64,000 bases of DNA from Alphaproteobacteria bacterium (GTDB taxonomy: Bacteria > Pseudomonadota > Alphaproteobacteria > VGEJ01): assembly GCA_965226045.1 (NCBI GenBank), contig CBDDBU010000028.1:1241-65240 (forward strand). The letters are read 5' to 3'. The position numbers were made by a program, and so were the translations under genes. The notes under the pieces are model-generated. The model had not been told where the DNA came from and ran no database searches. It was given only the letters and a program-made list of their open reading frames with translations. Every line of letters begins with the position of its first letter. Positions within the stretch are counted from its first letter, which is position 1. Below, one piece after another: positions 4,101 to 53,151 of the stretch.

Positions 4101-5475
4101 GAGCTATAACCGAATCTTGTGTACGGCGTTGAAATGAAGGCGGCGTATCCTGGTGATTGTTGATGTCACCACTTGAGCTAAGCCAAGGAAGGATAGGCCA
4201 TGAAAGAGAATACCGTTGTTGCTTTTCAAAACCCATCTGATTTTCAGAAAGATCCGTTGACGGAAGTCCTACAAGCTGGAGCTCGCGAGTTGTTGGCCCA
4301 AGCCGTTGAGGCCGAGGTCTCCGTGTTTTTGGGTAGCCATGCGGCGCTTGTTGACGCCGCCGGCCGCCGCCGGGTTGTCCGCAATGGATATCTGCCGGAA
4401 CGCTTCATCCAGACCGGGATCGGCCCGGTGAGCGTGCGCCAACCCCGTGTGCGGGACCGGGGGGACGGCGCCATCCGCTTCACGTCGGCGATCCTGCCGC
4501 GCTATCTGCGCCGCGCCAAGAGCCTGGAAGACCTTTTGCCATGGCTGTATCTGAAGGGCATTTCCACCGGCGACTTCGGGGAAGCCTTGGCGGCGCTCCT
4601 GGGGAGCTCCGCGCCGGGGCTTTCGGCCTCCACGATCACCCGGCTGAAAGAGGTCTGGGGGGTTGAGGCGGAGCGCTGGCAACGGCGCGACCTCACGGCC
4701 AAGCGCTACGTCTATTTCTGGGTGGACGGCATCTATTTCAGCGCCCGCATGGAGGAAGAGAAGCAGTGCATCCTGGTGATCGTCGGGGCCACGGACAAGG
4801 GACAGAAGGAACTGATCGCCATCGCCGACGGCTATCGCGAAAGTGAGCAGTCCTGGCTCGAAGTTCTGCTCGATCTCAAGCGGCGCGGCCTTGAAATGGG
4901 TCCGCAACTGGCGCTCGGCGACGGCGCGCTCGGCTTCTGGAAGGCGCTCCGCCAAGTCTACCCAGGCGCCCGCGAGCAACGCTGCTGGGTTCACAAGACG
5001 GGCAACGTCTTGAACAAGCTGCCCAAGGGTCTGCAAAAGAAAGCCAAGGGGCGCCTGCAAGACATCTGGATGGCCGAAACCAGGAAGGATGCCGAGAGCG
5101 CCTTCGACTTCTTCCTGGAAGCCTACGGGCCGAAGTACGACAAGGCCGCGGCCTGCCTGGCCAGGGACCGCGACGTCCTGCTGACGTTCTACGACTTCCC
5201 CGCCGAGCACTGGAAGCATGTACGCACGACCAACCCCATCGAGAGCACGTTCGCCACGGTTCGTCTGCGCACCTACCGGACCAAGGGCTGCCTGTCGCGC
5301 AAGACGGCGATGGCCATGGTCTTCAAACTATGCCAGTGCGCTCAGAGAAAATGGAGAAAACTCGATGGATCGAACCATCTCGCCGAGATCATTCGCGGCG
5401 TCAAATTCGTAGATGGAGAACGCCAGGATCGCGCCGCCGCATGATCAGCCCATACACAACTTTTGACAATAGCTC
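4101..5475 (+). mobile_element. IS256-family insertion sequence, copy A1 (1375 bp), with a 9-bp TSD TTTTCATCC
   Basis: Ends were defined by comparison with the identical copy A2. Imperfect terminal IRs are GAGCTATAACCGAATCTTGTGTA (left) and TACACAACTTTTGACAATAGCTC (right). Direct repeats sit at 4092-4100 and 5476-5484. Confidence 0.9.
4200..5444 (+). CDS. IS256-family (mutator-type) transposase
   Basis: 414 aa, mutator-type DDE transposase by sequence pattern. Identical at protein level to 27341..28585 (-). Confidence 0.9.
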   Translation: MKENTVVAFQNPSDFQKDPLTEVLQAGARELLAQAVEAEVSVFLGSHAALVDAAGRRRVVRNGYLPERFIQTGIGPVSVRQPRVRDRGDGAIRFTSAILPRYLRRAKSLEDLLPWLYLKGISTGDFGEALAALLGSSAPGLSASTITRLKEVWGVEAERWQRRDLTAKRYVYFWVDGIYFSARMEEEKQCILVIVGATDKGQKELIAIADGYRESEQSWLEVLLDLKRRGLEMGPQLALGDGALGFWKALRQVYPGAREQRCWVHKTGNVLNKLPKGLQKKAKGRLQDIWMAETRKDAESAFDFFLEAYGPKYDKAAACLARDRDVLLTFYDFPAEHWKHVRTTNPIESTFATVRLRTYRTKGCLSRKTAMAMVFKLCQCAQRKWRKLDGSNHLAEIIRGVKFVDGERQDRAAA

Positions 5476-9247: not shown

Positions 9248-9628
9248 ATGCCCAGCCAACCCGTGATCCCCAAAGGCGCCGCGCCGCCGCTCGCGCCGTA
9301 TTCGCCTGGAACGCGCGCCGGCGACACCGTGTACGTTGCCGGCACTGTCGCCCTTGACGGTGAGGGCAACGTTGTCGGCGTCGGGGATATCCGGGCCCAG
9401 ACGCGTCATGTCCTCGAGTCGGTCAAGGCGGTGATCGAGGCGGCGGGCGGAAGCCTCGCCGATGTCGCGTTCAATCAGATATTTCTCAAGGACTACGCCG
9501 ACTACGCCGGCATGAACGAGGTGTACCGCGAGTACTTCTCCGCCGACCCACCAGCTCGCTATTGCATCAAGGCGGACCTCGTCAAGCCGGAGTTTCTGGT
9601 CGAGATCGCCTCGACCGCCCACCGCTAG
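9248..9628 (+). CDS. ridA: RidA/YjgF-family reactive-intermediate (enamine/imine) deaminase
   Basis: 126 aa with the typical RidA pattern. RBS caggag lies 8 nt upstream. The stop TAG (9626-28) lies inside the CTAG TSD of IS-C. Confidence 0.8.
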
Positions 9629-9708
9629 CAGCCTGTCGGACTTGAGCCGGGAGTCGAAATAGGATTCGATGGTATCAGTTGATTTGCCCGCGCGTGATGG
9701 AGGCCGTC

Positions 9709-11067
9709 ATGAGCAATTTCCGACCGGTCGACCGGGAGACGGGGTTTCTGCTGCCGCCGTCGGTGGAGGAATGGCTTCCCGAGCGGCATCTGGCGCGCTT
9801 CGTGGTCGAGGTGATCGAGCAGTTGGACCTCTCGGCGTTCGTGAAGGCCTATCGCGGCTCGGGCTCGGCGTCCTATCACCCGAGCATGCTGCTGGGGCTT
9901 CTGGTCTACGGCTACGCCACGGGGGTGTTTTCGAGCCGCAAGTTGGAGCGCGCGACCTATGATTCTGTCGCTTTCCGCTTCATCGCGGCCAACGATCATC
10001 CCGACCACGATACCATCGCCGCGTTCCGGCGGCGTTTTCTCGACCGGATCGAAGGGCTGTTCGTCGAGGTGCTGCTGCTGGCCCGGGAAGCCGGGGTGCT
10101 GAAGCTCGGCACGGTGGCGCTGGACGGCACCAAGGTGCACGCCAACGCGAGCCGGCACAGCGCGCTGTCGTGGAAACACGCCTGCGAGCTCGAAGCCCGG
10201 TTGAAGGCCGAGGTGGCGGAGTTGATGGCGTTGGCGGAGGCGGCCGATGGGGCGGATGTGCCCGACGGGATGTCGGTGCCCGAGGAACTGGCCCGGCGCG
10301 AGGATCGTCTGGCCCGCATCGCCGAGGCTAAGGCGGTGATCGAGGCGCGGGCGCGCGAACGCCTTGAGCGGGAACGGGCCGAGTACGAGGCGAAGCTCGA
10401 GGCGCGCGCGGAGAAGGCCGAGAAGACGGGCCGCAAGCCGGGCGGCCGTCCACCCGAGCCGCCGGTGGCCGGGCCCGGGCCGAAGGACCAGGTCAATCTG
10501 ACCGACGCGGACTCGCGCATCATGCCGGTGGCCGGCGGCGGCTTCGAACAGGCCTACAACGCCCAAGCCCTGGTGGCGGCCGACAGCCTGCTGGTGGTCA
10601 CCAACGACGTGGTCCAGGCCCCCAACGACAAGCGGCAAATCGAGCCGGCGCTGGAAGCGCTCGCCCGCCTTCCCGAGGCGCTGGGCGCGCCCGAGACCCT
10701 GCTGGCGGACAGCGGCTACTTCAGCGAGGCCAACGTGAACGCCTGCGCCGAGGCCGAGATCGCGCCGTTGATCACGCCCGGCCGGGAACGCCATCATCTC
10801 TCCTGGAAGGACCGCTTCGCCGGCGCGCCGCCGCCCCCGGAGAACCCGACGCCGCTGGAAGCGATGACACATCGACTGGCGACGCCCGAGGGCCGGCAAC
10901 TCTACGCCCTGCGCAAGCAAACGCCGGAACCGGTGTTCGGCATCATCAAATCGGCCATGGGCTTCCGCCAGTTCTCGCTACGCGGCCTGGACAAGGTCAC
11001 GGGCGAATGGAACCTGGTGACCCTGGCCTGGAACATAAAGAGAATGTTCACCTTGCAATACGCTTGA
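9709..11067 (+). CDS. IS1182-family (IS5-like) DDE transposase
   Basis: 452 aa. N-terminal InsH-like domain, a coiled-coil middle, DDE region (LLADSGY...) and a C-terminal NIKR motif. Confidence 0.8.
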   Translation: MSNFRPVDRETGFLLPPSVEEWLPERHLARFVVEVIEQLDLSAFVKAYRGSGSASYHPSMLLGLLVYGYATGVFSSRKLERATYDSVAFRFIAANDHPDHDTIAAFRRRFLDRIEGLFVEVLLLAREAGVLKLGTVALDGTKVHANASRHSALSWKHACELEARLKAEVAELMALAEAADGADVPDGMSVPEELARREDRLARIAEAKAVIEARARERLERERAEYEAKLEARAEKAEKTGRKPGGRPPEPPVAGPGPKDQVNLTDADSRIMPVAGGGFEQAYNAQALVAADSLLVVTNDVVQAPNDKRQIEPALEALARLPEALGAPETLLADSGYFSEANVNACAEAEIAPLITPGRERHHLSWKDRFAGAPPPPENPTPLEAMTHRLATPEGRQLYALRKQTPEPVFGIIKSAMGFRQFSLRGLDKVTGEWNLVTLAWNIKRMFTLQYA

Positions 11068-11237
11068 GCAGGCGGCCGGACTCCGTACCTCGCGAAAAGG
11101 AATAAGAGTATGCTCGCCTTGCGGCACGCGCGAGCAAGCGAACGTACTTCGTGCCCTCACGAGAGGGCATAAGAGTATACTCACCCTGCGGTACGCGCGG
11201 CCAAGCGACCGCACTCCGTGTCCTCACGAAAGGCGCT
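11038..11237 (+). repeat. Three tandem ~67-bp units at the 3' end of IS-C. The first overlaps the last transposase codons.
   Basis: Units at 11038-11103, 11104-11170 and 11171-11237 are ~70-80% identical (AAGAG(A/T)ATG(T/C)TC.CC.TGC...). Confidence 0.8.
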
Positions 11238-11323
11238 CGATCCCATGACCTCTCCACATCGCGATCCGTCCACACCCATTCTCGCGGACTTCAGTCCGAC
11301 AGGCTGCTAGGGGGCGCCCCGGT

Positions 11324-15598: not shown

Positions 15599-17048
15599 CG
15601 GAGATGTCCCGGTCGATGTTGAAAAGTTGAGGTAGGTGTCGCTCTCCTGGAGCCGTTAGGCTCCGGGTGCTGCAAACCCAAGAGGGAGAACGACACCATG
15701 GGAAAGAATATCCGTAGTTCCAGTAGCCCGAAAGCCCTTGCCACCTCGTTTCCTATGCCGCCGCTGGCAGACGCGATGGACGCAGTCCGTCTCAGCGTGG
15801 ATCGGTTCTGTCTCCTGGCCGGGGTCGAGGCCTTGGCCGAGATGATGGAGGAGGACGCCACGACCGTGTGCGGGGCCCGACATCGTCGCCATGGGAACCG
15901 TCGGGGTTATCGCTGGGGCCATACGCAGAGCGAGATCGGCTACCACGGCGGCCGCGTGAAAGTGCAGCGGCCACGGGTTCGCGACCATGCTGGCAAGGAG
16001 GTGGGTTTGGAGAGCTGGCAGGTGCTGCGCGACGGCAACCTGTTGCTCGAGTGGGCGCTCAACCTGATGGTGCTGAACGTGTCGACCCGCAAGTACCACC
16101 GCGCGGTCCGTCTGCCCGAGGGCGACCTGGCGAAAGCGCGTGGCGACGGCACCTCGAAGTCGGCCGTTTCCCGGCGCTTTGTGGCGCTGTCGCGCAAGAA
16201 GATGAAGGCCTGGCTTGCCTCGGACCTCTCGGAGCTCGACCTGCTGGTCATCCAGATCGACGGTCTGCATGTCGGCGACCATGTCTTGGTGGCGGCGATC
16301 GGCGTCGATGGCAACGGCGACAAGCATGTCCTGGCCGTGGTCGAGGGGGCGACGGAGAACACTGTCGTCGTCCAGGCCTTGCTCGACAATCTCCTCGCCA
16401 GGGGGCTCGATCCGACGCTGCCCCGGCTGTTCATCGTCGATGGCGCGAAGGCGCTCAGCAAAGCGATCCGCAACACCTTCGGTGTGGCCGCCGCCATCCA
16501 GCGCTGCCAGGTCCACAAGGGCCGTAACATCATCGAGCGCCTGCCCCTGCATTTGCATGCGAGCGTCAAGAAGGCGCTCCGTCAGGCCTGGGACCAGGAC
16601 GACGCAGACAAGGCCGAACGGCTGCTGCGCAACCTGGCCCGGCGTCTGGAGCATGAGGAACCGGGCGTCTCGGGCAGCATCCTGGAGGGGCTGGACGAGA
16701 TACTCACCGTCATCCGCCTCGGCCTGCCGCACGAACTCCGGCGCTCGCTCGCCTGCACCAACATCGTCGAGAACGCGCTCGGCACGGTGCGCCAGGTCAC
16801 CCGCAACGTCAAACGCTGGAGACACGCCGAGATGGCGCTCAGATGGACCGCCGCCGGCCTGCTGGAGGCCCAGAAAACCTTCCGTCGCCTCAAGGCCTAT
16901 CGTCAGCTGCCCATCCTCCGAAATGCTCTCCAGGAACACTTGAGAAAGGCTCAGGCCGACAGTGCCATTGAAACCATCATGAAGGCAGCATAGCATCATC
17001 AACCAGCGACGCCTGCCCCACGAATTTCAACAGAGATAGGGACATCGC
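15599..17048 (+). mobile_element. IS256-family insertion sequence, copy B1 (~1450 bp), flanked by the 9-bp direct repeat CAGGTTCTC
   Basis: Ends were defined by comparison with copy B2. IRs are GGAGATGTCCCGGTCGATGTTGAAAAGTTG and, by reverse complement, GATGTCCCTATCTCTGTTGAAATTCG. Direct repeats at 15590-15598 and 17049-17057. Confidence 0.85.
15698..16993 (+). CDS. IS256-family (mutator-type) transposase, type B
   Basis: 431 aa, mutator-type DDE transposase by sequence pattern. ~99% identical to 25810..27195 (-). Confidence 0.9.
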   Translation: MGKNIRSSSSPKALATSFPMPPLADAMDAVRLSVDRFCLLAGVEALAEMMEEDATTVCGARHRRHGNRRGYRWGHTQSEIGYHGGRVKVQRPRVRDHAGKEVGLESWQVLRDGNLLLEWALNLMVLNVSTRKYHRAVRLPEGDLAKARGDGTSKSAVSRRFVALSRKKMKAWLASDLSELDLLVIQIDGLHVGDHVLVAAIGVDGNGDKHVLAVVEGATENTVVVQALLDNLLARGLDPTLPRLFIVDGAKALSKAIRNTFGVAAAIQRCQVHKGRNIIERLPLHLHASVKKALRQAWDQDDADKAERLLRNLARRLEHEEPGVSGSILEGLDEILTVIRLGLPHELRRSLACTNIVENALGTVRQVTRNVKRWRHAEMALRWTAAGLLEAQKTFRRLKAYRQLPILRNALQEHLRKAQADSAIETIMKAA

Positions 17049-25809: not shown

Positions 25810-27195
25810 TTATCGTGATTTCGGCCTGCGAGACCTAAGCGATGATGTCCCTATCTCTGTTGAAATTCGAGGGGCAGGCGTCGCTGGTTGATGATGCTGT
25901 GCTGCCTTCATGATGGTTTCAATGGCACTGTCGGCCTGAGCCTTTCTCAAGTGTTCCTGGAGAGCATTTCGGAGGATGGGCAGCTGACGATAGGCCTTGA
26001 GGCGACGGAAGGTTTTCTGGGCCTCCAGCAGGCCGGCGGCGGTCCATCTGAGCGCCATCTCGGCGTGTCTCCAGCGTTTGACGTTGCGGGTGACCTGGCG
26101 CACCGTGCCGAGCGCGTTCTCGACGATGTTGGTGCAGGCGAGCGAGCGCCGGAGTTCGTGCGGCAGGCCGAGGCGGATGACGGTGAGTATCTCGTCCAGC
26201 CCCTCCAGGATGCTGCCCGAGACGCCCGGTTCCTCATGCTCCAGACGCCGGGCCAGGTTGCGCAGCAGCCGTTCGGCCTTGTCTGCGTCGTCCTGGTCCC
26301 AGGCCTGACGGAGCGCCTTCTTGACGCTCGCGTGCAAATGTTGGGGCAGGCGCTCGATGATGTTACGGCCCTTGTGGACCTGGCAGCGCTGGATGGCGGC
26401 GGCCACACCGAAGGTGTTGCGGATCGCTTTGCTGAGCGCCTTCGCGCCATCGACGATGAACAGCCGGGGCAGCGTCGGATCGAGCCCCCTGGCGAGGAGA
26501 TTGTCGAGCAAGGCCTGGACGACGACAGTGTTCTCCGTCGCCCCCTCGACCACGGCCAGGACATGCTTGTCGCCGTTGCCATCGACGCCGATCGCCGCCA
26601 CCAAGACATGGTCGCCGACATGCAGACCGTCGATCTGGATGACCAGCAGGTCGAGCTCCGAGAGGTCCGAGGCAAGCCAGGCCTTCATCTTCTTGCGCGA
26701 CAGCGCCACAAAGCGCCGGGAAACGGCCGACTTCGAGGTGCCGTCGCCACGCGCTTTCGCCAGGTCGTCGCCCTCGGGCAGACGGACCGCGCGGTGGTAC
26801 TTGCGGGTCGGCACGTTCAGCACCATCAGGTTGAGCGCCCACTCGAGCAACAGGTTGCCGTCGCGCAGCACCTGCCAGCTCTCCAAACCCACCTCCTTGC
26901 CAGCATGGTCGCGAACCCGTGGCCGCTGCACTTTCACGCGGCCGCCGTGGTCGCCGATCTCGCTCTGCGTATGGCCCCAGCGATAACCCCGACGGTTCCC
27001 ATGGCGACGATGTCGGGCCCCGCACACGGTCGTGGCGTCCTCCTCCATCATCTCGGCCAAGGCCTCGACCCCGGCCAGGAGACAGAACCGATCCACGCTG
27101 AGACGGACTGCGTCCATCGCGTCTGCCAGCGGCGGCATAGGAAACGAGGTGGCAAGGGCTTTCGGGCTACTGGAACTACGGATATTCTTTCCCAT
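25810..27195 (-). CDS. IS256-family transposase, type B, copy 2. The stop codon is mutated (TAG to CAG), so it reads through 30 codons past the IS end.
   Basis: 461 aa against 431 aa for B1. Differences include EGDL to EGDDL, PLHLH to PQHLH and loss of the stop codon. Confidence 0.8.
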   Translation of the reverse strand: MGKNIRSSSSPKALATSFPMPPLADAMDAVRLSVDRFCLLAGVEALAEMMEEDATTVCGARHRRHGNRRGYRWGHTQSEIGDHGGRVKVQRPRVRDHAGKEVGLESWQVLRDGNLLLEWALNLMVLNVPTRKYHRAVRLPEGDDLAKARGDGTSKSAVSRRFVALSRKKMKAWLASDLSELDLLVIQIDGLHVGDHVLVAAIGVDGNGDKHVLAVVEGATENTVVVQALLDNLLARGLDPTLPRLFIVDGAKALSKAIRNTFGVAAAIQRCQVHKGRNIIERLPQHLHASVKKALRQAWDQDDADKAERLLRNLARRLEHEEPGVSGSILEGLDEILTVIRLGLPHELRRSLACTNIVENALGTVRQVTRNVKRWRHAEMALRWTAAGLLEAQKTFRRLKAYRQLPILRNALQEHLRKAQADSAIETIMKAAQHHQPATPAPRISTEIGTSSLRSRRPKSR

Positions 27196-27309: not shown

Positions 27310-28684
27310 GAGCTATTGTCAAAAGTTGTGTATGGGCTGATCATGCGGCGGCGCGATCCTGGCGTTCTCCATCTACGAATTTGACGCCGCGAATGATCTC
27401 GGCGAGATGGTTCGATCCATCGAGTTTTCTCCATTTTCTCTGAGCGCACTGGCATAGTTTGAAGACCATGGCCATCGCCGTCTTGCGCGACAGGCAGCCC
27501 TTGGTCCGGTAGGTGCGCAGACGAACCGTGGCGAACGTGCTCTCGATGGGGTTGGTCGTGCGTACATGCTTCCAGTGCTCGGCGGGGAAGTCGTAGAACG
27601 TCAGCAGGACGTCGCGGTCCCTGGCCAGGCAGGCCGCGGCCTTGTCGTACTTCGGCCCGTAGGCTTCCAGGAAGAAGTCGAAGGCGCTCTCGGCATCCTT
27701 CCTGGTTTCGGCCATCCAGATGTCTTGCAGGCGCCCCTTGGCTTTCTTTTGCAGACCCTTGGGCAGCTTGTTCAAGACGTTGCCCGTCTTGTGAACCCAG
27801 CAGCGTTGCTCGCGGGCGCCTGGGTAGACTTGGCGGAGCGCCTTCCAGAAGCCGAGCGCGCCGTCGCCGAGCGCCAGTTGCGGACCCATTTCAAGGCCGC
27901 GCCGCTTGAGATCGAGCAGAACTTCGAGCCAGGACTGCTCACTTTCGCGATAGCCGTCGGCGATGGCGATCAGTTCCTTCTGTCCCTTGTCCGTGGCCCC
28001 GACGATCACCAGGATGCACTGCTTCTCTTCCTCCATGCGGGCGCTGAAATAGATGCCGTCCACCCAGAAATAGACGTAGCGCTTGGCCGTGAGGTCGCGC
28101 CGTTGCCAGCGCTCCGCCTCAACCCCCCAGACCTCTTTCAGCCGGGTGATCGTGGAGGCCGAAAGCCCCGGCGCGGAGCTCCCCAGGAGCGCCGCCAAGG
28201 CTTCCCCGAAGTCGCCGGTGGAAATGCCCTTCAGATACAGCCATGGCAAAAGGTCTTCCAGGCTCTTGGCGCGGCGCAGATAGCGCGGCAGGATCGCCGA
28301 CGTGAAGCGGATGGCGCCGTCCCCCCGGTCCCGCACACGGGGTTGGCGCACGCTCACCGGGCCGATCCCGGTCTGGATGAAGCGTTCCGGCAGATATCCA
28401 TTGCGGACAACCCGGCGGCGGCCGGCGGCGTCAACAAGCGCCGCATGGCTACCCAAAAACACGGAGACCTCGGCCTCAACGGCTTGGGCCAACAACTCGC
28501 GAGCTCCAGCTTGTAGGACTTCCGTCAACGGATCTTTCTGAAAATCAGATGGGTTTTGAAAAGCAACAACGGTATTCTCTTTCATGGCCTATCCTTCCTT
28601 GGCTTAGCTCAAGTGGTGACATCAACAATCACCAGGATACGCCGCCTTCATTTCAACGCCGTACACAAGATTCGGTTATAGCTC
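27310..28684 (-). mobile_element. IS256-family insertion sequence, copy A2 (1375 bp, inverted relative to A1), with an 8-bp TSD CCGGTATT
   Basis: Direct repeats at 27302-27309 and 28685-28692. It ends 30 bp upstream of the lepB ATG. Confidence 0.9.
27341..28585 (-). CDS. IS256-family (mutator-type) transposase, copy of 4200..5444
   Basis: The identical 414-aa product. Confidence 0.9.
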   Translation of the reverse strand: MKENTVVAFQNPSDFQKDPLTEVLQAGARELLAQAVEAEVSVFLGSHAALVDAAGRRRVVRNGYLPERFIQTGIGPVSVRQPRVRDRGDGAIRFTSAILPRYLRRAKSLEDLLPWLYLKGISTGDFGEALAALLGSSAPGLSASTITRLKEVWGVEAERWQRRDLTAKRYVYFWVDGIYFSARMEEEKQCILVIVGATDKGQKELIAIADGYRESEQSWLEVLLDLKRRGLEMGPQLALGDGALGFWKALRQVYPGAREQRCWVHKTGNVLNKLPKGLQKKAKGRLQDIWMAETRKDAESAFDFFLEAYGPKYDKAAACLARDRDVLLTFYDFPAEHWKHVRTTNPIESTFATVRLRTYRTKGCLSRKTAMAMVFKLCQCAQRKWRKLDGSNHLAEIIRGVKFVDGERQDRAAA

Positions 28685-41413: not shown

Positions 41414-42882
41414 CAGCCCGTTGAAAAAGGCGTCATTGACCGGGTTTCACGCCACGGCGAAGCATATCGCGGCGAAGGCGGTTTCGCCATCCTCCGAGAC
41501 GATGAGGACGATCTGAACGACCAGGACGGCTCCAGCGGGCGTAACAAGCACGAACAAGGCGCCAATTCCGCCCGCCACGGCCTCCTTCGGGGTGCCGGCG
41601 CCGATGAGTTGGCGCATCAGCAACGATAGGTTGTGGCCGGCGACGTGAAGCAGGTATCGCTTGTGCACGTTCTCGCGGCCCCGAAGCCAGGTCCGGCGCA
41701 TACCGCCGCGATCGAGGTTGTGGGCAAAGGAGCGCTCGACGATCTCGGCGCGCAGCTTGAAGGCTTCCCTGGCCACCCCCGATAACAGCCGGGTCCGGTT
41801 GTTGGTGACCGCCCGGCGAGCCGCATCATCTCCGTGCCAGCGCGCAAAACCCTTCTGCTTGGGCTCGGAGATCCGGCTCTTCCAGGGGCCGTCGTCGAGC
41901 GCCTTCAAGACCAACCGTGAGTGGTAGCCCTTATCGGTCACACATTCGGCCGGATCTTCGGCCGTCGGCGCCACATCCACCGCCTCGAGGTTTGCCTCGG
42001 CCGCCGCCAGGGTCTTGGGAAGCGTTGTCGTATCGCCCTCGTCGGCCGGGTGCAGCTCCGCCGCCACCACCGCGCCGGTGTCCAGATCCACCGCGTGCTC
42101 GGGCTTGTAGGCCAGGTGCGTGGTGCCGTCCTTCATCTTGGCGATCTTGGCCTCGGGGTCGCTCCTGGAAACCCAGTCCTGGTTCGAGAGCTTCTTGCCC
42201 TTGCGCTTGCGGTCCAGACGCGCCAGGTCCTCAGCCGTGGGTGTCTCGATACCGCTCTCCTGGGCCAAGCGCTCCAGCATCCCCCGGTAACCCTCGCCCG
42301 TGTCCCTCCGCACGATGTTGCGCAGCGCCGCGTTGGCCTCCATGGTCGAGGCATCCACCCCGATGCGCTCGCCCTTCACCAGACCCGCCTCGGCGATCAG
42401 CGCCAGGACCCAGTCAAACACCGCCGTGTGGACTTCATGGGGCAGGCGCGCGCGGGTCCGTGACAGCCAGGAATGGTCCGGCACCCGTTCCCGCATCTCC
42501 AACAGCAGGAACTCCCGTAGCGACAGGGAATCCGAGCAGCGCCACTCCAGCCCACGCTCAGAGTCGATACCCTCGAAGTAGCCCACCAGGTGCATACGGA
42601 AGTAGCGCCCGGGTGGCACCGAAGGCGCCCCCATCCTGGCCGCGTAATAGGGCTGGCAGACCGCCTCGGCGAAGCCGTCGAAGCCGCCCTCGATCAGTAC
42701 CAACTGCAGGCGGTCGTAAAATACATGACCTGGCGAGCGCGGCATCTCCGACCAGCTCACCATCAAGTCCCCCTGACGATCCTTCTGCTGTCCCATCGCC
42801 ATCAGCGAACCCCCCTTCAGGCCAGGACACCAGAGAATCAGACCATGCCGACTTCGTCCAGGGAAGACTTCGTCAACGGGCT
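41414..42882 (-). mobile_element. IS5/IS1182-like insertion sequence 'IS-D' (~1469 bp) with a 4-bp TSD TTAG, inserted between motA and motB
   Basis: IRs are CAGCCCGTTGAAAAAGGCGTC and, by reverse complement, CAGCCCGTTGACGAAGTCTTC. TTAG sits at 41410-41413 and 42883-42886. The motA stop TAA is formed within the right TSD. Confidence 0.8.
41447..42802 (-). CDS. IS5/IS1182-family DDE transposase
   Basis: 451 aa with an InsH-like N-terminal domain and a DDE domain. Confidence 0.75.
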   Translation of the reverse strand: MAMGQQKDRQGDLMVSWSEMPRSPGHVFYDRLQLVLIEGGFDGFAEAVCQPYYAARMGAPSVPPGRYFRMHLVGYFEGIDSERGLEWRCSDSLSLREFLLLEMRERVPDHSWLSRTRARLPHEVHTAVFDWVLALIAEAGLVKGERIGVDASTMEANAALRNIVRRDTGEGYRGMLERLAQESGIETPTAEDLARLDRKRKGKKLSNQDWVSRSDPEAKIAKMKDGTTHLAYKPEHAVDLDTGAVVAAELHPADEGDTTTLPKTLAAAEANLEAVDVAPTAEDPAECVTDKGYHSRLVLKALDDGPWKSRISEPKQKGFARWHGDDAARRAVTNNRTRLLSGVAREAFKLRAEIVERSFAHNLDRGGMRRTWLRGRENVHKRYLLHVAGHNLSLLMRQLIGAGTPKEAVAGGIGALFVLVTPAGAVLVVQIVLIVSEDGETAFAAICFAVA

Positions 42883-42883
42883 G

Positions 42884-43740
42884 TTAGGCACCGTCCGAGC
42901 TGGCTATCGCCTCCTCGAGTTCGGCGAAACTCGGACGTTGATGGGAGAACAGTGTTTTCCGCGCGAACTCGATCGAGACGGCCGGGGCATAGCCCTGAAG
43001 ATGGGCGAGCAGGCCGGCTTCGATGCATTGATAGTACTTGGAGTCCGCGTCGGCCCACATCTCGAGGTTGCGGCTGCTGGGGCTCACGAATCCGTACGCC
43101 AACAAGATGCCGAGGAAGGTACCGACCAACGCGCCACCAATCAGCTTGCCGAGGATCTCGGGTGGGTCGGTGATGTGCCGCATCGTTACGACCACCCCAA
43201 GGACCGCCGCCACGATGCCGAATGCCGGCAGGCCATCACCAACATTCGTGACGGCTCCCGCCACCGCCGTCGCCTCGCCGTGGTGGGTCTCGATGTCCTC
43301 GTCGATCAACGCCTCTAATTCGTGGGGATTCTCGGTCCCCATGGTAATCAGTCGCAGGTAGTCGCACAGAAAATGAACGGCGTGCTTGTTCTTCATGAAC
43401 TTGGGGTATTCTTGGAATAGGGGACTCTCTTCTGGCGTCTCGATGTGCGTTTCCAGCGCCAACATCCCCTTCGACTTGGCGAGCCGAAAGATCGCGAACA
43501 AGAGCGTCAGAAGTTCGACATAGGCCGCCTTGTTGTGGGGGGGGCTTTGAGAACTCGCCCGGGACTCTTGAACACCGCGACAATTAGAGTCTTCGGATTG
43601 GAGAGAAGAAAAGCGCCGAATGCGCCGCCGCAAATTATCAGCACCTCGAAGGGCTGCATCAGCACGGTGAGGTCGCCGTGGGGCATATAGCCGCCCAACA
43701 CGGACCCGATCATCACCACTACGCCAATTATCGCCCACAT
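42884..43740 (-). pseudogene. motA: Flagellar motor stator protein MotA, frameshifted at a G8 homopolymer
   Basis: The N-terminal 95 aa (MWAIIGVVVMIGSVLGGYM...) lie in one frame and the rest (...KAAYVELLTLLFAIFRLAKSKG...) in another. The junction is at G8 (43527-43534). A ninth G would restore ...VLKAPPHNKAAYVELL... Confidence 0.7.
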
Positions 43741-43858
43741 GCTTCGCCAACCCGTCTCACAGTGAAGAAACAGCCGCCGATGCTTCTGCATGGGCGGTAA
43801 ATTCGTAACCGGCCGTTAGGCCATGATCACCCCGTCACGCCACGGCCCGCGCGCAAGA

Positions 43859-47574: not shown

Positions 47575-48385
47575 ATGACGCTGCAACGGACGCACACGCT
47601 CCGGCGGCCGGGCACGGAACTGCCCCGCTACAGTTCCGTGCGCCAAATGCTTGGCGAGCTGCGCCCAAGCTACCCGGTGTATTGTCTATGGCCGTCTCCC
47701 CTTGGTCAGCGCCGCACGATGGTTCATCACGCATTTTCCCGGCGAGGTTCGGTACGCCGTCAAATGCAGCCCGCATCCGTTCGTCCTCGATACGCTTCAT
47801 GCGGTCGGCATTCGCCAATTTGACACGGCATCGCTGCCCGAGATCGCTCTTATCAGCGAGCGGTACTCCGATGTCGTCAGCTATTTCCATCATCCGGTCA
47901 AGCCGCGCGCGGCGATCCACAGCGCCCGCCACGTATACGGTATTCGCCACTTCACCGTCGATTCCGAGGCCTAACTCGACACGATCACGGCCGAGACCGG
48001 CGGCGGCGATCTCGCGGTGCAGGTGAGAATAGCGACCCTGGTCACTCGCGCGGCCATCGATCTCTCCCGCAAGTTCGGAGCGCCGCCGGAAAGGGCGCCA
48101 GAGCTTCTGCGTGCGGTCGCGGCGGCCGGATACGAGCCCGGCATTTCCTTTCACGTGGGTTCCCAGTGCCTCGAACGGGATGCGTTCCGCACGGCGCTCG
48201 CGTTGACGGCGGACGTCTTGGGCGCGGCCGGCGTCGAGATAGGAGCGCTGAATGTTGGCGGCGGGTTTTCGGCGGCTTACCCGGATCTGGAAGCCGCTGA
48301 CCTCGACGCCTATACCCGCGCTATCGCGGCCGGGCTGGACGACCTTTGGCGGCCGGCGGGCTGCGCTGTTCTCTGTGAGCCGGCG
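47575..48385 (+). pseudogene. Ornithine/lysine decarboxylase (fold-III PLP decarboxylase), N-terminal part, with a +1 frameshift, an in-frame TAA and IS21 truncation
   Basis: ...RPSYPVYC, then a shift at ~47690, then LPLVSAARWFITHFPGEVRYAVKCSPHPFVL...FTVDSEA-TAA(47972-74)-LDTITAETGGGDLAVQVRIATL...GISFHVGSQ...NVGGGF...VLCEP, then the IS21 left end at 48386. Confidence 0.75.
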
Positions 48386-48588
48386 TGTCAATCGGCGTTG
48401 AACATTGACCCCCTATCGGCGTGCAATGTTGACCCCTTTGGGGATGCACGGCGGAGGTCGTACAGGTAGTCCATAGGAGGGGCCCGCGCGCGGGCCGACG
48501 CGCCCACCACGCGGCTGGCGGCGGACCGCGTGTGGGAGGTTCCTGTGGGCCCACCTGGGCGACCGGGCCGCAGGTGGATCGGTTGCCT

Positions 48589-49317
48589 TTAGGACCGATT
48601 CTTGAAGCGCCAGGAGTCGTTTCCGGTCTCGATGATCTCGCAGTGGTGCGTCAGACGATCGAGGAGCGCGGTGGTCATCTTGGCGTCGCCGAAGACGGAC
48701 GGCCATTCGCCGAAGGTCAGGTTGGTGGTGACGATGATCGAGGTGCGCTCGTAGAGCCGGCTGACGAGGTGGAACAGCAGCTGGCCTCCGGTTTGGGCGA
48801 AGGGCAGGTAGCCGAGCTCGTCGAGGATGACGAGGTCGCGCCGGGCCAGCTGATCGGCGAGCCGGCCCTGGCGGCCGGCGCGGGCTTCGGCCTCGAGCCG
48901 GTTGACCAGGTCGGCGACGTTGAAGAAGCGGCCCCGGGCGCCATCGCGGATGCAGGCCCGCGCGATGGCGACGGCGAGATGGCTCTTGCCGGTGCCGGTG
49001 CCGCCGATCAGCACGGCGTTGCGCTGGTTGGCCAGGAAGCCGCCGACCGCCAACTCGCGGACCAGCGGCTCGTTGACCGGGGTGTCGGTGAAGTCGAAGT
49101 CGGCCAGCTCCTTGGCCAGCGGCAGCTTGGCGCCACTCATCTGGTACTTGATGGATCGCGCCTGCTTGTCGGCGATCTCGGCCTTCAACAGCTCGCCGAT
49201 GATTCGCTGCATCGGATGCTGGCGCTTGAGGCCGTCGGCGAGCACCTCGTCGAACGCGTCGCGCATGCCGGCGAGCTTGAGTGCGGCCATCATCTCCAGG
49301 ACCTCATGGCGCTCCAT
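48589..49317 (-). CDS. istB: IS21 helper ATPase IstB
   Basis: 242 aa. Walker [10 protein letters not shown], Walker B DELGY. Confidence 0.85.
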
Positions 49318-50815
49318 GGCCGACCCCCCTCAAGCGGTCGTAGCGGGTGCAATCGGCCACCGGCTCAAAGCGAAGACGCAGGTTCGCGGGCGTCGGGATC
49401 GGCGCCGTCTCGGACGGCTGGCGCCGACGATTGAGGATGTTGAGCACGACGTCGGCGCTGCACACGCCGCCAGCGAGCGCCTCGGCACAGGCGGCCTCCA
49501 CCGCCGCCAGCCCATCCGCCAGCACGGCGGTGAGGATCTCGACCATCTGCCTGTCGCCGTCGTCGTGGCCGGCGAGCCGGACGCGCACGCGACCCAGGGC
49601 GCCGGGCAGCGCCCAGTCCTTGAACGGCGCGCCGTTACGAAGCGCACCGGGCTTCCTCGCCAGCACGGGCACCTAGTGCCACGGGTCATAGACGGTCTGG
49701 TCGCGGCCGAAGCGCCGGGCATGCTCGGCGACGATCTCGCCGTCCTGGCGGATGACGATGCGATCGGCGTAGGCATGGACCTCGACCGGACGGCCGACGG
49801 CGCGCGCCGCCACGCTGTACTTGTTGCTGTCGAAGCGCACCAGGCAGGTCTTCGACACCGACGCCGGGACCGCGTGGAAGCCGTCGAACGGCCCGCGATA
49901 GCCGACCAGGGACGGACGCTCGTCCTCGAACACCTGCCAGACAGTCCTGTCCTTGAACACCGGGTGGGGATGACCCCGGGCGTAGGCGACGCACTGGTCC
50001 AAGAGCCAGGCGTTGAGCTCGTCGTAGGTCTTGAAGCGCAGCCGCGGGGTGAAGAACCGACCGCGGATGATCCCGACCTGGTTCTCGACCTGCCCCTTCT
50101 CCCATCCCGCTCCCGGCGTGCATGCTGTCGGTTCGACCAGGTAGTGGCCACACATCTGCACGAAGCGCCGGTTGAACGCGCGCTCCTTGCCGATGAGGAC
50201 GGTCTGCACCGCCGTCTTCATGTTGTCGTAGATGCCTCGCCGGCAGGCACCCTGGAACAGCCGGAATGCCCGGTCGTGGGCGTCGAACACCATCTCCTGG
50301 CTCTCGCGCGGATAAGCGCGGACGAAGAACATTCGGCTGTGGCACAGCCGGACGTGCGCGACCTTGACCTTGGTCGTCACCCCCGCCAGCACCACGTACT
50401 CGTGGCTCCAGTCGAACTGATAGGCCTCGCCCGGCGAGAACACCAACGGCACATAGGTCTGCGCCGTCGATGCCGAACGGCGCCACCGCCACGCCTTGGC
50501 GTAGCGCCGCACCGCGTCGTAGCCGCCGCCATAGCCCAGACCCTCGAGGGCTTCGGAGATCCGTAGCAGCGTCAGCCGCTCCCGCTTCGACTTGGTCTCG
50601 TTGGCCTCCAGCATCCGCTCCAGCTCGGCCGTCCACGGCCCCAGCTTCGGCATCGGCTGGACCCGCCGGTCGTAGGTGAACGCCGTCGCCTGCGAACGGA
50701 TCACCTTGCGCACCGTGTTGCGCGAGACCTTCACGTCCCGCACGATCTCCTTGATCGGCTTCCCCTTGACGAAATACTCCCGCCGGATCCGCGCTATCGT
50801 CTCCACGACCAACAT
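49304..50815 (-). pseudogene. istA: IS21 transposase IstA with an in-frame amber codon (TAG at 49673-49675)
   Basis: ...QTVYDPWH-TAG-VPVLARKPGALRNGAPF... The stop and the downstream ORF are in the same frame. Family members have Tyr at this position. Confidence 0.75.
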
Positions 50816-50930
50816 CCCCCACCACCTCGTCCGCCCAAAAACGAGGTGACTTGGACTAGCCAGGCTCAGGGGGGCAAATTTGGACGCCGATCACCCCTCA
50901 ACAGGGGTCAACTTTGCACGCCGTTCCACA

Positions 50931-51228
50931 ACCAGGGCGTGCAATGGTGGCTGAGGCGGGCTCGCTGGTGGCCCAGGTCCCTTGGCGCAAGGACCGCGCC
51001 CTCTATCTCAACGACGGCATATTCGGCTGCCTCTCAGATCTCCGCGCGGACATCAAGGTAGGAGTGATGTGCCATCGCCTGGACGGCGATATGAGCGACA
51101 CGTCGGCGTCCTTTACGCTGTTTGGCCCGACTTGCGATTCGGCCGACGTGCTGGCGCACACCTGGGAGCTGCCCGTCGATACCTCGGAAGGCGATTGGGT
51201 CGAGTTCAAGCAAATGGGCGGGTACTAG
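50931..51228 (+). pseudogene. Ornithine/lysine decarboxylase, C-terminal part (continues the 47575 fragment after the IS21)
   Basis: GRAMVAEAGSLV...NDGIFG...TLFGPTCDSADVL...GDWVEFKQMGGY is the canonical ODC C-terminus (EPGR motif restored across the IS). Confidence 0.75.
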
Positions 51229-51277
51229 AACTCGCTGGCCACTCATTTCAATGGGTTCTCGCAGGACACCTTCGTGA

Positions 51278-53151
<1,874 letters not shown>

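Follow-up and report, generated by a model that had tools for sequence, protein, structure and literature searches.

A decarboxylase pseudogene struck late by an IS21-family element whose istA amber codon marks a multi-copy sub-lineage

The stretch of DNA analysed here (the window) comprises 64,000 nucleotides of contig CBDDBU010000028.1 from the alphaproteobacterial assembly GCA_965226045.1, and contains a gene predicted to encode a fold-III decarboxylase of the ornithine/lysine type that is broken by point mutations and by a 2545-bp insertion sequence (IS) of the IS21 family. The IS is the youngest of these events and entered a gene whose function was gone and whose sequence was drifting. 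Its own transposase gene, istA, carries an amber codon, and this nonsense allele marks a diversified IS sub-lineage that is older than the decarboxylase insertion; the defective sub-lineage multiplied and was recently inserting. The reading preferred here, to which a probability of about 0.7 is given, is that of a fossil decarboxylase gene and a late-arriving defective IS, the amber sub-lineage having been amplified via transposase supplied in trans and homogenised by gene conversion.

A decarboxylase gene dead before the insertion

The full feature occupies 47575-51294 on the plus strand and carries four lesions, namely a frameshift, an ochre codon, the IS, and an amber codon. It thus holds no uninterrupted frame of the length of its orthologues (388 amino acids). 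Its parts, together with the target copies that flank the IS, are as follows (all positions are those of the window).

47575-48385, plus strand: 5′ part of the decarboxylase gene, codons 1 to about 269, with the start codon at 47575; Pfam Orn_Arg_deC_N at 4e-33 and 90% identity to the intact relative P0001
47698-47701, plus strand: +1 frameshift, four Cs against three in the orthologues, from DNA alignment to loci L001-L003
47972-47974, plus strand: ochre TAA in place of Glu133 (GAA in the orthologues)
48379-48385, plus strand: left target copy, GCCGGCG (empty site in L058, GCCGGGG)
50931-50937, plus strand: right target copy, ACCAGGG (same empty site)
50938-51294, plus strand: 3′ part of the gene, GRAMVAEAG ... 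FVIIVPS and the stop, from Pfam Orn_DAP_Arg_deC, alignment and tblastn
51226-51228, plus strand: amber TAG in place of Ser367, within the C-terminal motif GAYSN...FNGF

At the frameshift, the window reads GTCTCCCCTTGG where L001 reads GTCGCCCTTGG, and reading moves from frame 1 to frame 2. Past the second nonsense codon, the frame runs on to the original TGA at 51292-51294, and the 3′ end overlaps the end of hemB by 17 nucleotides, exactly as in the orthologous locus L002. An earlier account of the window made from its letters alone (the sequence-only reading) had the gene span 47575-51228 and described it as hit three times; its start is right, and the frameshift, the ochre codon, and the IS21 are all present, but the gene continues to the original TGA and the amber codon was missed as a lesion.

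The order of events is readable from a natural strain with an empty site. An exact-protein look-up with the neighbouring CoA-transferase recovered three contigs that come from other metagenome samples and share 99.6-100% identity with the window. One (L056) has the same IS at the same place, the same decarboxylase point lesions, and the same amber codon in istA. A second (L057) has the IS, again with TAG in istA, and the left half of the gene only, with the frameshift and TAA. The third (L058, 99.8% identical) is without the IS, its site reading ...CTGTGAGCCGGGGCGTGCAATGG..., which corresponds to LCEPGRAMV. Despite this un-inserted site, L058 carries the frameshift, TAA, and TAG, so that the decarboxylase must have lost its function ahead of the IS: the point lesions came first and the IS last. 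Because the gene was already dead, the insertion would have been without phenotypic consequence. The sequence-only reading had counted the IS as one of three independent causes of loss, which the un-inserted strain contradicts, and the case cautions that an IS sitting in a broken gene should not be taken for what broke it. The same strain confirms a further proposal of that reading, namely that EPGR reappears when the gene is read across the IS (LCEP on one side and GRAMVAEAG on the other).

In L057 (1-6553), the other side of the IS is joined to a region matching the flank of another IS copy (L076), which itself adjoins an integrase/AlpA/Toprim island; this is an IS-IS recombination, with the right half of the gene moved elsewhere. 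The left half in L057 has an extra small indel at about 9357-9377, where the tblastn match is interrupted from residue 178 to residue 185, and this indicates ongoing decay.

Decay is also visible in the substitutions. With L001 as outgroup, amino-acid changes number 20 on the window branch against 8 on the L002 branch, and the pairwise ratio of nonsynonymous to synonymous substitution rates (dN/dS) is 0.38 when the window is compared with L002, the two intact genes giving 0.16 between them. The signature motifs of the family—AVK(C)N with the lysine that binds pyridoxal 5′-phosphate (PLP), GGGFP, EPGR, and the C-terminal GAY...FNGF—are all recognisable in the orthologue alignment. In the window, AVKCN has become AVKCS, GGGFP has become GGGFS, and GAY has become GGY (followed by the stop and then N), and EPGR is split by the IS. 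Point mutations (the additional C, GAA to TAA, and the change to TAG) thus killed the decarboxylase, drift then eroded the conserved motifs, and later, in a subset of strains, the 2545-bp element entered GCCGGGG inside the EPGR codons.

The family label is sound. Once repaired, the translation contains both Pfam domains of the fold-III PLP decarboxylases (Orn/DAP/Arg decarboxylase family 2), with Orn_Arg_deC_N (PF02784) at 4e-33 and 115 bits (cut-off 23.4) and Orn_DAP_Arg_deC (PF00278) at 5e-14 and 52.8 bits (cut-off 23). A search of a large protein collection returned two close intact relatives of 388 amino acids each, P0001 (90% identity) and P0002 (82%), along with several thousand remoter homologues, of which those listed are about 50-56% identical and bear the label ornithine decarboxylase in some sources. 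The neighbourhoods of P0001 and P0002 are that of the window (penicillin amidase, family-III CoA-transferase, decarboxylase, hemB, PhyH), and the order CoA-transferase, decarboxylase, hemB, and PhyH is kept in L001-L003. Among solved structures, P0001 comes closest to the lysine/ornithine decarboxylases 5gjm and 2plj and next to ornithine decarboxylases (ODCs) of the eukaryotic type (E values from 7.5e-43 to 1e-33). Domains and alignment to intact orthologues thus agree with the sequence-only reading in assigning the pseudogene to the fold-III ornithine/lysine type. Ornithine or lysine is the putative substrate; the equivalog cut-offs of NCBIfam are not reached (lysA, 114 against 298; DokD, 24 against 700).

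The sequence-only reading took synthesis of the polyamines putrescine and cadaverine by this route to be lost; family membership suggests no more than that it may have been. A second fold-III decarboxylase was found neither in the window nor in about 1 Mb of loci, which is not a genome-wide search, and Pfam scans of the main open reading frames (ORFs) of the window found no speA, speB, aguA, or pot genes.

An IS21-family element with a lineage-wide amber codon

The boundaries of the IS were set by more than 22 full-length sibling copies from other genomes, at 99.4% identity or above, and its features are the following.

48386-50930, minus strand: IS21-family IS of 2545 bp with TGT...ACA termini; the full-length siblings align over positions 1-2545
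48386-48412 and 48415-48436, no strand: two terminal repeats of the istB-side end, core CGGCGTnnAAnnTTGACCCC; 3 matches against 0.01 expected by chance
48589-49317, minus strand: istB, an intact AAA+ helper of 242 amino acids, Ala135 variant; Pfam IstB_IS21 at 3e-74
49304-49672, minus strand: istA codons 382-503 and stop, a separate ORF from the GTG directly after the TAG; helical C-terminal region
49673-49675, minus strand: amber TAG at Tyr381 of istA, TAC to TAG (CTA on the plus strand; position 49673 is C, against G in TAC copies)
49676-50815, minus strand: istA codons 1-380, with helix-turn-helix (HTH), DDE core, and beta-barrel; Pfam rve at 128-235 and Mu-transpos_C_2 at 309-377
50868-50891 (inner) and 50904-50930, no strand: two terminal repeats of the istA-side end, within 50868-50930

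IstA matches NF033546 with 290 bits (cut-off 160) and contains the Pfam domains rve and Mu-transpos_C_2, IstB matches NF038214 with 272 bits (cut-off 200), and IstA aligns with the IS5376 IstA of the PDB at an E value of 1e-21. The start of istB at 49317 overlaps the stop of istA at 49304-49306. The termini read TGTCAATCGG... and ...CCGTTCCACA, with two repeats of about 20 bp at each end; on the istA side, the inner repeat has GGGGGCAAAT and not GGGGTCAAAT (position 50874), and amber copies are polymorphic for this variant. The nearest named relative found in a plasmid collection belongs to the ISMdi27 family, with 76.7% nucleotide identity over 90% of the length; that plasmid database held no near-full-length close copy, its closest relatives being 73-78% identical. 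By the usual cut-offs, the element classifies as a new IS and a new member of the IS21 family.

Gene-length accounting leaves a surplus of 7 bp at the insertion (811 + 364 - 1 - 1167), which fits a 7-bp duplication of GCCGGGG. A perfect simple target duplication was rejected for the window copy after several registers had been tried, 7 bp with three substitutions being the most economical solution; conversion tracts that run past the ends of the IS, or consensus noise at the G-run, may have scrambled the target. Where sibling copies show a target duplication, it measures 5-8 bp and can be perfect; about half of them show none.

The amber codon replaces a tyrosine (...YDPWH-Y-VPVLARKPGAL...) that is invariant in all 42 homologues of 74-92% identity, among which much of residues 381-503 is also invariant; no full-length transposase is thus encoded by the window copy. 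The sequence-only reading was correct in seeing TAG where the family has tyrosine. Codon 381 is TAC in 51 of 51 near-identical copies elsewhere (46 in the metagenome-assembled genome (MAG) CBDDBZ01, 3 in CBDDDJ01, and 2 in CAXXRP01), a set that comes from a pattern search over one genome per species. In the alignment with the solved IS5376 IstA, which spans residues 12-271, the amber codon lies outside the mapped part. That the C-terminal region matters is supported, besides its conservation, by IS5376 IstA, in which integration is reduced when Gln369, a residue of the tail that follows the beta-barrel, is mutated (PMC10122671). A structure model of the intact IstA predicts residues of about 380-470 to be helical, with a predicted local distance difference test (pLDDT) score of 71-92; the whole model is poor (pLDDT 57, predicted template modelling score 0.27) and was used solely for this helical call.

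Within the lineage of the window, the same codon is uniformly TAG. This holds for 31 of 31 copies scanned in loci L056-L088, whose genomic contexts differ, and for every copy recovered from the lineage's contigs, at more than 35 distinct sites. The exact 380-residue IstA product of the window is listed in 39 index blocks, and a 353-residue version, with the same amber and an extra T that turns Lys22 into TAA, in 29. A look-up with the window's exact IstB (Ala135), which is unbiased with respect to the amber, found it on 14 contigs, and IstA was split into 380 and 120 amino acids at all ten of the places shown. In a census, 380-residue products were found on 34 and 22 contigs, the 353-residue product on 30, and the 120-residue C-terminal ORF on 118 and 22 (about 140 contig records); the cluster of truncated IstA held 109 distinct sequences, and the common type of IstB was on 654 contigs. 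The C-terminal ORF has 122 residues in the ORF list and 120 according to gene callers.

Amber copies exist both with Gly281 and with Arg281, which is the older state. In L059, L066, and L067, amber copies are flanked by perfect 6-7 bp target duplications, evidence of real transposition, and amber copies also occur in the sample that holds the empty-site strain. The amber thus marks a diversified IS sub-lineage older than the decarboxylase insertion, and the copy that entered the decarboxylase gene very probably had the amber already. The view of the sequence-only reading that this copy is probably non-autonomous is plausible; its treatment of the amber as a private defect is not tenable, since every copy recovered from the lineage has it. 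What looks like a private nonsense allele of the transposase is thus the hallmark of an entire IS sub-lineage that has been amplified.

The extra T lies at IS positions 178/179 (about 50752-50753 in the window) and occurs in many amber copies (L056, L057, L059-L068, L126-L128), where it places AAGGAG before in-frame GTG codons. It is absent from the window copy and present in the orthologous copies of L056 and L057, its state differing between samples at five of five orthologous loci.

A comparison of flanks between amber and TAC loci found only other IS elements in common, which carry no information on orthologous sites. A tetranucleotide classifier, intended to assign loci to the window's organism or to that of MAG CBDDBZ01, was discarded because its training sets were confounded (core against IS-flank DNA).

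How a defective element could have multiplied

Trans-supplied transposase together with gene conversion between copies is the likely cause of the amplification. Amber copies would be non-autonomous and moved by IstA supplied in trans, with a rare intact copy or an intact sister IS21 element on the organism's contigs as candidate helpers, and frequent gene conversion between copies would spread and shuffle the variants. Circumstantial evidence for mobilisation in trans comes from amber copies at multiple sites with target duplications, from the strain-polymorphic insertion, and from the intact sister with matching ends. This sister (P0150; L109 2887-5429) has 88% DNA identity to the element, 86% protein identity in IstA, and nearly the same terminal repeats; it is found once on each of two contigs of the window's organism, ctg257332l (about 190-200 kb from the decarboxylase locus) and ctg5068.

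Intact 503-residue forms of IstA are abundant in the same metagenomes. The organism of MAG CBDDBZ01 carries one intact variant, whose flanks are 99.7-100% identical to loci of that MAG, and two others lie on several multi-megabase contigs and thus in different genomes. The intact form with identical IstA is also seen on different contigs of 3.4, 5.2, 5.5, and 6.2 Mb from these metagenomes (L112-L121, L099-L108), which suggests recent horizontal spread of the intact IS through the community.

Exchange among copies is strongly indicated by haplotypes that are mosaic and fail the four-gamete test, five polymorphic sites occurring in most combinations among amber copies, and by orthologous IS copies that differ between samples or strains at all five loci compared. 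Gene conversion or recombination would account for this, unless polishing by the assembler blurs repeats.

Several observations weigh against amplification in trans followed by homogenisation. On contigs proven to be of the window's organism, no fully intact copy of the same IS was found, and the helper is for that reason unproven; the only TAC-type copy on them (P0137/L111) is old (97% identity) and frameshifted. Bacterial ISs generally have a strong preference for action in cis (PMC3205602), so that amplification in trans on a large scale is less expected. The target duplication of the window copy is degenerate and differs among assemblies that are 99.9% identical (in L056, ...GCCAGGC precedes the IS and CCGGGGCG... 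follows it). Finally, the doubly defective variant, with amber and extra T, is itself multi-copy, which fits mobilisation in trans and gene conversion alike.

The foremost alternative, considered doubtful here but deserving of attention, is gene conversion alone: the copies would have been inserted while intact, an amber of single origin would have spread through them by conversion and drift, and the family would now be immobile. The mosaic haplotypes and strain-differing orthologous copies show conversion or recombination among copies, in favour of this explanation; about half of the copies lack target duplications, IS-IS recombination is seen in L057, and Wolbachia wBm offers a precedent (Cordaux 2009, as cited in PMC3205602). 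However, the decarboxylase insertion is polymorphic among strains that are 99.8-99.9% identical, and all three of its carriers have TAG. The amber lineage also has greater age and diversity, its four sub-haplotypes being nested and spread over four samples. The intact (TAC) form with Gly281 is absent from a protein collection of about 15 billion sequences, and conversion would thus have to have erased every trace of it.

It is distinctly unlikely that the amber element is still autonomous, whether through read-through of UAG or through a two-part transposase in which the 380-residue part is joined by a helical part of 120-122 residues re-initiated at the adjacent GTG. All copies seen in the lineage carry the amber, yet recent insertion is evident. 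The 380-residue product retains the HTH, the DDE core, and the beta-barrel and is close to the canonical length of IstA (400 residues in IS5376; PMC10122671), the GTG abuts the stop (TAG GTG), and the prediction gives the C-terminal part as a helical region of its own. No secondary lesion occurs in codons 382-503 of about 33 copies, against about 1.5 expected, which is not significant. On the other hand, Tyr381 and the RKPGALRNGAPF segment that follows are invariant in the family, and no Shine-Dalgarno-like sequence precedes the GTG. A sub-lineage that has also lost the first 24-27 residues (HTH-1) is equally multi-copy, and copy number is for that reason not evidence of self-sufficiency. Two findings speak against recoding or suppression: TAG is a normal stop that terminates 10 of the 47 ORFs in the window, and no suppressor tRNA with a CUA anticodon was seen in the window or in 34 loci. 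Were the element autonomous after all, an IS21-family member would have evolved a throttle by point mutation and still reached dozens of copies in one host.

Sequencing or assembly errors that hide an intact decarboxylase and istA are highly improbable: the frameshift does lie within a four-C homopolymer, and junctions and the state of the extra T vary between assemblies, so that some consensus noise inside repeats is possible, but the identical frameshift, TAA, TAG, and istA TAG recur in independent assemblies from other samples (the last in two independent assemblies of the same insertion, which answers the doubt over the tyrosine codon raised in the sequence-only reading), substitutions account for two of the lesions, the surplus of replacements at motif positions does not depend on the stop codons, and the IS insertion by itself disrupts the gene.

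An IS-laden host and known parallels

The host is an alphaproteobacterium laden with ISs and accumulating pseudogenes. The window is core chromosome, with dnaE, relA/spoT, pdxJ, lepB, rnc, era, recO, parC, motAB, hemB, glyA, nrdR, and rib genes, and seven IS copies were counted within its 64 kb. A second pseudogene is motA (43031-43758, minus strand), which has a frameshift near 43530-43550; its first 77 residues lie in one frame and the remainder in another, and gene callers give products of 77 and 193 amino acids (L056-L058). The motA gene is also broken in the relative L001, at a different position.

Between motA and motB lies a 1470-bp IS5-family element (DUF772/DDE_Tnp_1; 41414-42883), flanked on either side by TTAG, which is present in the window and in L058 but not in L056 or L057 and is thus a second strain-polymorphic insertion. 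Another IS5-family element, of 1678 bp (9629-11306), is flanked by CTAG on both sides. The istA amber generates a CTAG, and two other copies of the IS21 element each contain the 1678-bp element at precisely this site, in orientations opposite to each other (L068 5063-6740; L072 5144-6821). Two IS256-like pairs (Mutator-family transposase) are also present, at 4210-5475 with 27310-28575 and at 15698-16993 with 25810-27195; the members of the former are identical and inverted, and enclose about 22 kb that includes relA/spoT and pdxJ.

A pseudogene and a new IS21-family member are ordinary kinds of feature, and the twist, which makes the case moderately interesting, is a lineage-wide nonsense allele in a recently mobile lineage. 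It provides a natural system for the spread of a full-length defective IS, be it by mobilisation in trans, by gene conversion, or by a leaky stop.

The decarboxylase of Selenomonas ruminantium (5gjm), that of Vibrio vulnificus (2plj), and ODCs of the eukaryotic type have the same two Pfam domains as P0001. The window copy, by contrast, is a pseudogene with four disabling lesions and reaches no equivalog cut-off of NCBIfam.

Members of the IS21 family such as IS5376 and ISMdi27 of Methylorubrum extorquens DM4 have, as here, genes for IstA (HTH, DDE, beta-barrel) and for the AAA+ protein IstB with overlapping ends. Their termini, too, are TG...CA, each end bearing two repeats to which IstA binds, and the short target duplications of the family (4-8 bp) have a counterpart in those of 5-8 bp in the siblings of the present element (PMC10122671, PMC11208146). 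The IstA described here is of the long type, with 503 residues and a conserved helical C-terminal region of 122, whereas that of IS5376 has 400 and a tail of 45 residues in this place. Unlike in the named IS21 elements, istA in the lineage of the window carries an amber at Tyr381.

[quoted passage not shown] MITEs are deletion derivatives, however, whereas the amber element is of full length, has an intact istB, and differs from the autonomous form by point changes only.

Another parallel is offered by Wolbachia, for which Cerveau et al. 2011 (PMC3205602), citing Cordaux 2009, likewise describe many near-identical, full-length IS copies with pseudogenised transposase in one genome, in a host that, as here, abounds in ISs and pseudogenes. 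The explanations proposed there are gene conversion and horizontal re-supply. In contrast to Wolbachia, a single nonsense allele here marks a whole expanding sub-lineage, one of whose insertions is strain-polymorphic, and the intact form of the IS circulates in neighbouring genomes of the same community.

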